From contig CALLZM010000002.1 of the NCBI GenBank assembly GCA_937858705.1, forward strand, positions 2,046-66,045: 64,000 nucleotides of DNA, read 5' to 3'. The translations under genes and the position numbers were made by a program. Shown here in pieces: positions 22,993-25,537 of the stretch. Position 1 is the first letter of the stretch; the number at the start of each line of letters is the position of its first letter. The notes beneath the pieces are model-generated. The model made no database searches. It was not told the DNA's origin and saw nothing but the letters and a program-made list of their open reading frames with translations. The stretch comes from an uncultured Candidatus Saccharibacteria bacterium. Its GTDB lineage: Bacteria; Patescibacteriota; Saccharimonadia; Saccharimonadales; Saccharimonadaceae.

Positions 22993-23331
22993 ATGAATGA
23001 ATTACCCGTTGTTAACCGTTCTCAAGAATTATACGGCGCTGTGCGGCCTATTATCAATAAACTACCAAGCCTCGAAAAGCAAACCATTGGTTGTCGAGTT
23101 GAAGACGGTATATTGTCATTGCTCGAATCATTTATCATGGCAAAGCACGCGCCAAAAGCCCACAAGACAGTATATTTATTGCGCGCAACTGCCCAGATAG
23201 AACTGCTTACCTTTCAGCTTCGCCTTTTACTCGAGCAGAAGTTGGCAAACGAGACAACCACGCACCAACTCCAAGCCAAACTCGTCGAGATTGGCCGCAT
23301 GTGCGGCGGGTGGCTGAAATCAACACAATAA
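22993..23331 (+). CDS. avd: Avd-like accessory variability determinant (four-helix-bundle family)
   Basis: 112 aa, all-helical and basic. The segment ...LRATAQIELLTFQLRLLLEQ...LQAKLVEIGRMCGGWLKS parallels the Bordetella phage bAvd C-terminus (...AQVLIAEVGRILGSWIAR, recalled). SD GGAG lies upstream. Confidence 0.7.
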   Translation: MNELPVVNRSQELYGAVRPIINKLPSLEKQTIGCRVEDGILSLLESFIMAKHAPKAHKTVYLLRATAQIELLTFQLRLLLEQKLANETTTHQLQAKLVEIGRMCGGWLKSTQ

Positions 23332-23332
23332 A

Positions 23333-23358
23333 CCTCCCTATCCTGTAGGAAAGGGAGG
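23333..23358. terminator. hairpin CCTCCCT-A-TCC-TGTA-GGA-A-AGGGAGG between the avd stop and the TR 3' end
   Basis: Read directly. On the minus strand it is followed by TTTATTGTGTT. It starts 2 nt after the avd stop codon (23329-23331). Confidence 0.6.
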
Positions 23359-23365
23359 TCATTAC

Positions 23366-23482
23366 TTGTTGCCTCGTCGAGAGACCAACGCCGATGCTCG
23401 GATTGCCCTTGCCATTCGACCTGTCCAGCTTGAGCTGACTATCGTTCGAGTTGACATTACCGACCATCGAGTCACCGTCCGC
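23366..23482 (-). repeat. DGR template repeat (TR)
   Basis: Aligns without gaps to 23715-23831 (offset 349). It has 30 adenines on the minus strand. In the VR frame it reads ADGDSMVGNVNSNDSQLKLDRSNGKGNPSIGVGLSTRQQ. Confidence 0.85.
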
Positions 23483-23544
23483 ACTATATACCCTGGCACT
23501 TCATACTCTACGGTTCATTCGCAAATAAAGAGAGTTACAGGCAC

Positions 23545-23573
23545 ACTATACCAGGCGCACGCGGGGCATACAA
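23545..23573 (-). promoter_or_regulatory. candidate promoter TTGTAT-17-TATAGT driving the minus-sense TR RNA
   Basis: -35 is the reverse complement of 23568-23573 and -10 that of 23545-23550. It lies ~60 nt upstream of the TR 5' boundary. Confidence 0.45.
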
Positions 23574-23702
23574 ATTATTTATTTTCGATTGCCAGGCACT
23601 CATAGATTTCAGCCCTACTCGGCAAACCAGCACCCAGGATGACAATACGAAACCAAAACCAAGTATACCACAAAAGGGGAGAAAGGAGAGAAGAGCTAAG
23701 GC

Positions 23703-24542
23703 CTAAGGGCGCTTAGCCGGCCCCGCCGAGAGACCAACGCCGACGCCCGGATTGCCCCGGCCACCCGACCCGCCCAGCTCGAGCTGACCACCGCCCGAGC
23801 GGACACCACCGACCAACGAGACGCCGACCGCGTCCTTTGTCCGACCGAGAGTTGGGTCACGCACAAAACCACGGTTGAGTACATAGTCGAGGCTTGTCGG
23901 ATCAAGCGCATCATCAACTTTTTCGCCGCGAATACGATCCATGATGACCATCATCAAAACCGCACGCGTCGAAAGATCCCAGGCAGTATGACCAGGATGG
24001 GCTTGCTCAAAGCCTTGTCCCGCGTCGTCAAGCCACTCTAGCTGCGTTTGTTTGCCCCGATCCCACCTGTCTCTTGCATAAGGGTCAAAAGGCAGACCAA
24101 GGGCATGCAATATCGGGTCTACGCCCGTATCTTCTTTGTGCGTAAAGAGAGCTAGACGACCTTCATTAATCTCTGGCCCGCCGTCTAATGCACTGCACAC
24201 ATAACCACCGCTACGACGAGATTGCTTCAGAGGCCACAGACCATCATAACGATATACCGTCGCAACTCCTTGCGGACGCTTGCCTTCAGCTCCACGCACT
24301 AGATCCTCAAATGTGGCGACTGCCGCTGCCAACGCTGGATATAGCCGGCCATCGTAGCCGAGGCGACCTACATCCTCATAATCTTCAGCGAGGCCTTTCG
24401 ACGGGGTAAAACCAAGCCACTCAAGTGCCTCGTTCGAGACATCAAGCGCTTCCTGTGTATCAGGCGCTCCACGACGGAATGGTAGATCTGGCGATGTGGA
24501 GGCCGGTCGCCGCCCAGTAGATTGAGTTACTTCAAATGCCAT
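23703..24542 (-). CDS. DGR target protein with C-terminal variable region
   Basis: 279-aa ORF whose last 39 codons are the VR. No signal peptide or TM was seen. The N-terminal ~240 aa has no family I recognise. Confidence 0.8.
   Translation of the reverse strand: MAFEVTQSTGRRPASTSPDLPFRRGAPDTQEALDVSNEALEWLGFTPSKGLAEDYEDVGRLGYDGRLYPALAAAVATFEDLVRGAEGKRPQGVATVYRYDGLWPLKQSRRSGGYVCSALDGGPEINEGRLALFTHKEDTGVDPILHALGLPFDPYARDRWDRGKQTQLEWLDDAGQGFEQAHPGHTAWDLSTRAVLMMVIMDRIRGEKVDDALDPTSLDYVLNRGFVRDPTLGRTKDAVGVSLVGGVRSGGGQLELGGSGGRGNPGVGVGLSAGPAKRP
23715..23831 (-). repeat. DGR variable repeat (VR)
   Basis: 28 of 117 positions differ from the TR, and 26 of these are at TR adenines (coding strand). Encodes AVGVSLVGGVRSGGGQLELGGSGGRGNPGVGVGLSAGPA and ends 12 nt before the stop codon. 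Confidence 0.85.
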
Positions 24543-24583
24543 GAGGGTCCTTTCTTTAGCATATAGTTACATTGTATCATATC

Positions 24584-25537
24584 TTATCCCATTTTGTCAA
24601 GTATTTCCGCATTTTCGTCGAGTATCCGCCAGTAGAGCTCCTTTTTGATGTGTTTTGCTAGGGCAAGAGATTGGTAGCTCGCGAGGTTACCACACCTTAC
24701 TTTCGCCAGGACGGCTTGCGAGGTGTGTTTATCGACCACGGCATAGCGAGAGAATACGGCATGGCCGAGGAAGTGTAGTCCGCTCGCTGCCGGCACCACA
24801 ACATTACTGCGCGGGTTGACTGTCAAGTCGAGTGTATCATACAAAAATTTCGATGCTACCAGCTGGTAGTGCCTGGCCCGACGGCGCGTCGGGGCAATAA
24901 GTATGAAATCATCGCCATAGCGCACAAAGCCCTGTGGTTTTAGCTGATGGCGTACAAATCGGTCAAACATATTGAGATAGATGTTTGAAAATATCTGACT
25001 AGTAAGATTACCGATGGGGATGCCTCGCTGCATGTCTACGCTAGTATAGCTTTCTATGACTTTGCCAGATAGCCATAGCAGCTCACTGTCTTCGCCCAAA
25101 CGGCGCGCTAGTTCTGCACGGAGAATATCATGGTGTACATGGTCGAAAAACTTCGTAATATCTGCTCGCCAGACATAGCTATCTGCGTGGCGCGCCAGAA
25201 GTTGCCGCGTTCTATCGAGCGCCCGATGCAACCCCTTGCCCTGACGACACGACCACACATCTGGGTCGAACGACTTGTCAAAGCATACAACCAACCGGTC
25301 ATAAATATAGCGATGTATCACCCTATCGCGCACCGTAGCTACGGCGAGATCGCGACGCTTTTTATCACTCACAACTATGCGTTGATACCCTCCGTGACGA
25401 TATGTTTTCTCGTTTATTTGCGTTGTGAGATCAGTAATATTTCGTTCAAGATAGTATGCAAACTCATCGATATGCCGACTTGGCCGTTTACCCTTACGAA
25501 ACACTCTCCAGGCATCATAGACATGGCCATATATCAC
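24584..25537 (-). CDS. DGR-type reverse transcriptase
   Basis: 317 aa with [21 protein letters not shown] (DGR-specific (I/L)GxxxSQ motif) and [12 protein letters not shown] catalytic box. The GTG start overlaps the obg TGA. Confidence 0.85.

Follow-up and report, generated by a model that had tools for sequence, protein, structure and literature searches.

Diversity-generating retroelements (DGRs) are, to our knowledge, the only natural system of targeted protein hypermutation in bacteria. They are especially common in the tiny episymbiotic candidate-phyla-radiation (CPR) bacteria, in which their targets are mostly unannotated. Here we describe such an element in a 64-kb stretch of DNA (hereafter the window) from a genome of Candidatus Saccharibacteria (TM7), a group with cultivable human-associated as well as environmental members. 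Downstream of the GTPase gene obg, on the minus strand, lie a reverse transcriptase (RT) gene, a target gene that carries the variable repeat (VR) near its 3' end and a non-coding template repeat (TR). The accessory gene avd follows on the opposite strand, and an sbcB-like exonuclease I gene borders the element on the far side. A sequence-only reading of this DNA had reported these four parts and both neighbours; the listing of open reading frames (ORFs) and direct reading of the sequence agree with it on the parts, and the neighbours are as claimed (Table 1). None of the three ORFs (RT, avd and target) is disrupted. We consider it very likely that the window holds a complete chromosomal CPR-type DGR that was active recently, an element of a kind already well known, CPR bacteria included.

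Template and variable repeats, reverse transcriptase and strain variation

The two repeats were compared by script over the 117 positions originally aligned by hand (23366-23482 against 23715-23831). The offset is 349 throughout, there are no gaps, and 28 of the 117 positions mismatch. On the coding (minus) strand 26 of these are adenines of the TR that are replaced in the VR (18 by G, 4 by T and 4 by C); the remaining two mismatches are a T to C and a C to G change. Substitution affects 26 of the 30 TR adenines. The hypergeometric probability that at least 26 of 28 mismatches fall on 30 adenines among 117 positions is 1.3e-19. These counts are identical to those of the hand alignment, the translations match the TR and VR peptide strings given with it exactly, and the mismatches, rather than spreading over all four TR bases, are adenine-specific.

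Two details of the earlier description have to be amended. While the offset and the lack of indels stand, the demonstrable repeat is shorter than 117 bp: the repeat finder returns a gapless unit of 112 nt (23371-23482 and 23720-23831) with 23 mismatches, 22 of them at adenines, and with identity at 85 of the 86 non-adenine positions (P = 2.8e-18). The outermost 5 nt (23366-23370 versus 23715-23719) mismatch at all five positions, so there is no sign that they belong to the repeat, and it is in this unalignable end that the C to G mismatch falls. Likewise, the VR does lie near the 3' end of the 279-aa ORF but does not form its last 39 codons, since three codons (KRP) and then a TAG stop follow it.

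Of the 30 TR adenines, 14 stand in codon position 1, 14 in position 2 and 2 in position 3; with 28 of 30 in the first two positions, this is the usual DGR design. Adenines occur in 21 TR codons, mostly AAY, GAY and AGN, from which ~1e16 protein variants are possible. The scaffold GSxVGxVxSxxGxLxLxxSxGxxxxxxGVGLS remains fixed in the VR.

Among solved structures, the best relative of the RT is the DGR RT of a Bordetella phage (BPP-1 bRT, 8ub7_A), with 94.5 bits and an E-value of 6.6e-26 over residues 5-276; group II intron RTs in the PDB reach at most 75.5 bits. Its IGNLTSQ is the DGR form of motif 4 ([I/L/V]GxxxSQ, versus QGxxxSP in group II RTs), and its catalytic YxDD box reads YGDD. The highest NCBIfam score belongs to the group II intron RT/maturase model TIGR04416, at 137 bits versus a cut-off of 300 and over the RT part only, while the retron, Drt2, Drt3a, Drt4 and AbiA models all score far under their curated cut-offs (e.g. 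58 versus 390 and 34 versus 235). No group II intron, retron RNA or other Rfam RNA was found to match the element. A group II intron, retron or Drt identity was thus rejected, with curated cut-offs unmet, no matching RNA family and bRT closer, and by motif 4 and its best solved relative the RT is taken to belong to the DGR clade, as had been proposed. It should be noted that its GTG start codon overlaps the stop codon of obg as GTGA (25534-25537), which suggests that the RT is co-transcribed and translationally coupled with this essential gene. In relatives of the element the RT follows other genes, e.g. uvrB or a ParE toxin gene.

The 112-aa helical protein, which had been likened to Avd on its appearance, scores 49.4 bits against Pfam bAvd, over the gathering cut-off of 40, and matches the solved structures of Bbp7 (4dwl, 1.7e-3) and Avd (8ub7_B, 1.1e-2). 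An avd gene in reverse orientation directly after the TR (Architecture B3, TR-(avd)-RT) is carried by 90% of the DGRs from CPR bacteria (Wu et al. 2018, PMC5758913); an Avd on the opposite strand is therefore normal here.

Variation within populations was approximated by comparing assemblies from different samples. A second allele of the target (P0162) falls in its 90%-identity cluster, and the contig that encodes it (L011), from a different sample, has the same cassette and the same neighbours. Between L011 and the window the VR differs at 17 of 117 positions (14.5%), 16 of which are TR-adenine positions. The rest of the cassette is far more alike: the spacer between VR and TR has 0 differences in 220 positions, the TR differs at 2 of 117 positions, and the differences amount to 2.2% for the RT, 1.0% for the target body and 0.3% for avd. 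In two other allele pairs (P0002/P0163 and P0003/P0164) the proteins are identical or one residue apart outside the VR and have many differences within it. The expectation that VR polymorphism is confined to TR-adenine positions thus holds almost entirely between assemblies of different samples. Such strain differences carry the signature of recent mutagenic retrohoming in nature and, judged by sequence comparison, this DGR has been active on the time scale of strain divergence. Taken together, the adenine-specific mismatches, an RT nearest to bRT, the Avd match and the VR polymorphism between assemblies bear out the identification of a DGR with the signature of mutagenic retrohoming.

Table 1. 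Coordinates of the DGR and of predicted elements at the locus, in minus-strand order
Feature	Position	Strand	Description
DGR RT gene	24584-25537	-	317 aa; Pfam RVT_1 2.3e-15; IGNLTSQ and YGDD in translation
Promoter-like site for target gene	24571-24600	-	TTGACA, 18 nt, TG-extended TACAAT; 11/12 in consensus scan
Target (variable protein) gene	23703-24542	-	279 aa; family unannotated
VR	23720-23831	-	Codons 238 to ~275 of the 279-codon target; reached 23715 in the sequence-only reading
GC-rich VR 3' end, IMH-like	23720-23731	-	TCTCGGCGGGGC; VR/TR alignments in five loci
Inverted repeat directly after VR	23700-23718	-	GGCTAAG-CGCC-CTTAGGCC; 5-7 bp stem, 4-nt loop
Extended -10 element	23662-23670	-	TGGTATACT; ~35 nt past target stop, ~10 nt before first leader helix
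Structured leader RNA	23483-23654	-	~170 nt, directly 5' of TR; two stem domains, four main helices with covariation
Near-invariant 11-nt block	23558-23568	-	TGCCCCRCGTG; inside leader; 11/12 loci fit consensus
TR	23371-23482	-	Non-coding, 112 nt, 26 adenines; 117 nt and 30 adenines in the version extended to 23366
Stem-loop 12 nt after TR	23333-23358	-	CCUCCCU..AGGGAGG; ~9 + 3 bp, tetraloop; then UUUAUUGUGU
avd accessory gene	22993-23331	+	112 aa, convergent with TR; Pfam bAvd 7.4e-13

The spacer and its leader RNA

The spacer between VR and TR, ~230 nt long, holds a promoter-like element and a structured RNA, both absent from the sequence-only reading, which also says nothing on the target's lack of a recognizable family or fold or on the opposite-strand Avd as the usual CPR arrangement. 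The DNA lying between the target stop codon and avd was aligned for 11-12 loci. In these a T-rich tract follows the hairpin at the gene end, and an element resembling TGnTAnAAT stands at the same alignment position in 12 loci (e.g. TGCTAAAAT, TGTTAAAAT and TGTTATAAT). This extended -10 element is likely the promoter of an RNA that comprises the leader and the TR.

The structure of the leader was derived with RNAalifold and pair counts over 11 loci. Changes on both sides of a pair number 32, versus 16.3 +/- 2.4 in shuffled alignments (0 of 500 as high) and 9-13 when the partners are slid, and 92.1% of cells are able to pair, versus 83.6% in shuffles. The four main helices are kept, with further double changes, in locus L023, which was not used to derive the structure and whose target is 33% identical. 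In addition, a covariance model from whose alignment the window was left out has its sole match in the 64 kb at 23475-23654(-) (78.7 bits, E 8.5e-17), and it has no match in loci where a homologue of the target stands without a TR. No Rfam family matches the leader, which is, on the evidence of covariation, a previously undescribed structured RNA.

Within the leader lies the near-invariant 11-nt block, which in L023 has one substitution (a T variant, TGCCCCATGTG). It keeps a fixed spacing of 101-107 nt from the TR core (12 loci). The block may pair with the ends of the TR, as one compensatory change suggests; by alignment the partner is both the 5' and the 3' end of the TR in one case and the 3' end only in the other, and L023 does not decide between them. 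If the block pairs with the opening nucleotides of the TR and with the GGCA where the TR-VR homology ends on its 3' side, the duplexes would be akin to the stop and template-primer duplexes of the phage system. A sigma-70 -35 element was considered for the block and rejected, the nearest -10-like hexamer being only ~13 nt away.

On the far side of the TR, the fold of the TR region has a z-score of -3.8, and the terminator scan calls the stem-loop at 23358-23333 together with UUUAUUGUGU terminator-like. Relatives also have a stem-loop just 3' of the TR, of different sequence. Given that an Avd-binding stem-loop is found in this position in 207 of 278 DGRs (Handa et al., bioRxiv 10.1101/2023.10.23.563531), the one in the window is a candidate Avd-binding stem-loop, a candidate intrinsic terminator of the TR RNA, or both.

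By analogy with the IMH and IMH* of BPP-1, the VR end TCTCGGCGGGGC may act as the initiation of mutagenic homing (IMH) site. In several relatives the corresponding VR end has one non-adenine difference from the TR (G in the VR, C in the TR). The inverted repeat that follows spans the TAG stop codon at 23705-23703, and relatives have AGCTTGA-NCC-TCAAGCT in its place. The hairpin or cruciform after the VR in phage DGRs has a GC-rich stem of 7-10 bp and a 4-nt GRNA loop (Guo et al. 2011, PMC3240598).

These features can be assembled into a mechanism, for which we infer the start and end of transcription, the part of the leader and stem-loop in recruiting RT and Avd, and the priming site. A non-coding RNA would be transcribed on the minus strand from the extended -10 promoter that closely follows the target gene and would consist of the ~170-nt leader, the 112-nt TR and the 3' stem-loop. 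The RT and a pentameric Avd would bind this RNA and copy the TR into complementary DNA (cDNA), with random nucleotides placed opposite template adenines. The cDNA would then replace the VR at the 3' end of the target gene, with homing guided by the VR's GC-rich end and the inverted repeat next to it. The 21 adenine-containing codons could be recoded in this way to ~1e16 protein variants, while the scaffold residues stay fixed.

A bolder extension of this mechanism makes the 5' leader the scaffold that recruits RT and Avd and delimits the cDNA, its 11-nt block clamping the ends of the TR, and makes the product a hypervariable surface on a compact ~270-aa protein whose fold is not recognizably that of a C-type lectin. 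We put it forward tentatively, as a combination that is unlikely to hold in full. Similarly doubtful, in our judgement, is the proposal that the leader is an independent regulatory RNA, either an element in the 3' untranslated region of the target mRNA or a small RNA, with no function in the template RNA of the DGR. Such an RNA would accord with a role of the leader in reverse transcription that is deduced from sequence, with a pairing between block and TR ends that differs between alignments, and with the Bordetella phage, in which the essential structured RNA (Sp) lies 3' of the TR and ~20 nt upstream suffice (bioRxiv 10.1101/2023.10.23.563531). However, the leader is present only where a TR follows and is absent from target homologues without a TR, a conserved -10-like element stands just upstream of its first helix, and the distance from block to TR core is fixed at 101-107 nt. 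Furthermore, a terminator-like hairpin comes close behind the TR in several loci and leaves little room for a 3' Sp.

Conservation and decay of the cassette in relatives

The cassette, with RT, target (VR), spacer, TR and reversed avd, recurs in at least 12 Saccharibacteria loci, and in related loci the TR sits downstream of the VR at a distance of 345-371 nt. A search with a DNA pattern made of the conserved block and the TR scaffold matched one metagenome contig and five GTDB species genomes. All named genomes with the cassette are metagenome-assembled genomes (MAGs) of Saccharibacteria or Saccharimonadales. TR-VR mismatches are almost only at adenines in L001, L007, L008, L009/L010, L011, L019, L020 and L023. 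Three loci of the same layout (L016-L018) have 8-22 non-adenine mismatches in a gapless TR/VR comparison, in which adenine specificity is not shown; the excess is probably due to indels.

Elsewhere in the window, a lysM-TM7 RNA motif (28061-28216 (-); Rfam RF03005, 77.2 bits versus a gathering cut-off of 61.5) is found immediately upstream of a LysM/CHAP-domain gene (26863-28035(-)) and fits a Saccharibacteria (TM7) origin. The sole tRNA gene of the window is a tRNA-Glu (CTC) at 58144-58218 (-).

Decay is common in the cassette family. In L003 (5001-6157) the RT, target and avd look intact but the spacer and TR are missing, and only 6 nt separate the target and avd stop codons; either a deletion, perhaps through recombination between VR and TR, or an assembly collapse could account for this. 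A homologue of the target stands alone, with no RT, avd or TR nearby, in L006 (5001-5861) and L021 (396-1238). The C terminus of the L006 protein is Asn-rich and TR-like (VGNVNSNGGGLRLNRTNGDANSN), and this homologue may be an undiversified or orphaned copy. Finally, frameshifts split the RT in L001 (1256-2256; 198 + 135 aa) and in L009 (692-1658; 134 + 179 aa), the latter identically in L010 from a second sample. Non-adenine TR-VR mismatches number one in L001 and none in L009. The split RTs could reflect recent inactivation, or in L001, which may be a long-read assembly, a sequencing error.

Several observations weigh against a complete and recently active DGR in the window. The first concerns position 23474, where the window TR has T and both the sister TR of L011 and the two VRs have C (a synonymous change from GGC to GGT). 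As the sister TR has C, the window TR mutated after its last homing event, and as this point mutation is not reflected in its own VR, there has been no homing since. It is the only non-adenine TR-VR mismatch of the window within the 112-nt unit. The two strains also differ at 23440 of the TR, A versus G, which alters the mutability of that site. Current activity in this exact genome is, moreover, a deduction from comparing assemblies. The promoter and terminator assignments are consensus matches, in which the region is no richer than shuffled sequence. With 5-7 bp, the stem after the VR is shorter than in the phage consensus; it contains AT pairs and has a lower GC content, and the loop reads CGCC instead of GRNA (PMC3240598). 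Avd scores 65.3 bits (5e-18) against NCBIfam DivGenRetAVD, under the equivalog cut-off of 80, and the VR-bearing domain of the target gave only sub-threshold matches to C-type lectin folds.

The mutation at 23474 would suit a fossil, i.e. a DGR whose parts are still recognizable but in which retrohoming has recently ceased, so that the VR records the last diversification event. The decay seen in relatives, with split RTs in L001 and L009/L010, loss of spacer and TR in L003 and absence of the DGR in L006 and L021, points the same way. On the other hand, the three ORFs of the window are intact, identity at non-adenine positions is 85 of 86, the leader fits its covariance model over the full length, and the closest strain, 1-2% diverged, has a VR that differs at 16 adenine positions. 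We consider a fossil improbable. A rival view, with a group II intron, retron or defence (Drt/UG) RT and a repeat that is an ordinary diverged duplication of the gene's 3' end, is hardly credible, for although the top NCBIfam score is that of a group II RT/maturase (137 bits) and there are weak Drt2, Drt3a and retron matches, these scores are far under the cut-offs (137 versus 300, 58 versus 390, 34 versus 235), no group II or other Rfam RNA belongs to the element, the best solved relative is a DGR RT, an Avd gene is adjacent, and the mismatch pattern has P ~1e-18 under base-independent divergence.

The variable protein and comparison with known systems

An identical copy of the target protein is on record, annotated as hypothetical, from a MAG of Candidatus Saccharibacteria. 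The protein has no match in Pfam, NCBIfam, PDB sequence or PDB profile searches, and none of 105 members of its family matches Pfam (FGE-sulfatase, DUF1566 and Lectin_C included). The family is rare: it forms 15 clusters among 5.8 billion proteins in a word-indexed search and 210 representatives at 50% identity in an exhaustive profile search; nearly all full-length members listed have 240-310 aa. Conserved motifs of the body are LGYDGRL, LW, DPxLH, TQL and MDRIRG, while in the final ~40 residues fixed and hypervariable positions alternate. By eye, the N terminus of the target shows neither a signal peptide nor a membrane helix. Its promoter-like site, a consensus match only, sits inside the 3' end of the RT gene.

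With 105 sequences, AlphaFold (AF2) gave a confident target model with a predicted local distance difference test score (pLDDT) of 92.8 and a predicted template modelling score (pTM) of 0.90; a model built from 15 sequences was of low quality (pLDDT 63.5) and gave no meaningful Foldseek matches. The 105-sequence model has no Foldseek match with E < 1 in the PDB and BFVD. The best matches, all non-significant, have E-values of 1.3-1.6 and template modelling (TM) scores of at most 0.37 over ~120 columns, and are led by proteins like C-type lectins (rhodocetin and a lectin of a poxvirus) and by short segments of TaqVP, a DGR variable protein. In the model, the order of secondary structure in the C-terminal half reads as compatible with a C-type lectin-like domain (CTLD). 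Uncharacterized VR domains of CPR bacteria are expected to be new variants of the C-type lectin (Roux et al. 2021, PMC8144416).

In the vicinity, at 20066-21196 (-), a 376-aa protein has a type IV pilin-like N terminus with an N-methylation motif and a C-terminal FISUMP/Fib_succ_major domain, a type of domain that is often a DGR target in CPR bacteria. A scan of both strands of the 64 kb that tolerates mismatches at adenines found no second VR for the window TR, its matches being the known VR and the TR itself. The FISUMP protein, which has no TR match, is therefore not a target of this TR. Profile comparison found no similarity between the target family and this pilin-like protein.

The locus is a clean example of a DGR with evidence of activity in Saccharibacteria (TM7). 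Its target belongs to a small, well-modelled family without a recognizable fold, which is open to structure determination and to ligand screens, e.g. with surface molecules of the actinobacterial hosts, among which a ligand might be sought. Should the fold indeed prove not to be that of a lectin, the target would add to the natural scaffolds that carry massive sequence variation. The leader upstream of the TR could show how the DGR ribonucleoprotein is organized where avd is convergent and there is no room for a 3' spacer. Both the target fold and the 5' leader are testable extensions, and neither overturns the current understanding of DGRs.

Compared with the variable proteins of C-type lectin fold (Mtd, TvpA, TaqVP and AvpA), the target is alike in that its C-terminal VR is predicted to form beta-strands with a fixed Gly/Ser/Val scaffold. 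The modelled order of its C-terminal elements (beta, alpha, beta, alpha, then four or five beta-strands) would also be CTLD-compatible. Unlike these proteins, the target family has no significant Foldseek, Pfam or PDB profile match.

The DGR of BPP-1 (mtd-avd-TR-brt) differs from the window element in several respects: the window element is chromosomal, its avd is on the opposite strand and other genes or repeats stand between its RT and TR. In the window the long, conserved structured RNA precedes the TR on the 5' side, whereas that of the phage (Sp) is 3'; the window target neither resembles Mtd nor shows a detectable C-type lectin signature, and the hairpin after the VR is weaker and lacks the GRNA loop. 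The two systems share the pairing of an RT with Avd and adenine mutagenesis from TR to a C-terminal VR. The window element also has a GC-rich VR end with an inverted repeat after it, comparable to those of the phage, and a stem-loop just 3' of the TR like the Avd-binding one, and its RT aligns to bRT.

The closest likeness is to the DGRs of CPR bacteria (Wu et al. 2018, PMC5758913; clade 2 Patescibacteria in Roux et al. 2021, PMC8144416), with which the window element shares a CPR host, a chromosomal location, a single target and a C-terminal VR. Its VR, too, is of a class not assignable by sequence to the CLec or Ig classes, as with UVR1-6 and 45 further CPR VRs that were left ungrouped (Wu et al. 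2018, PMC5758913). As in the CPR Architecture B3, a reverse-strand avd comes immediately after the TR; the window element and its relatives depart from that architecture in the position of the RT, which lies upstream of the target and not after avd on the TR strand.

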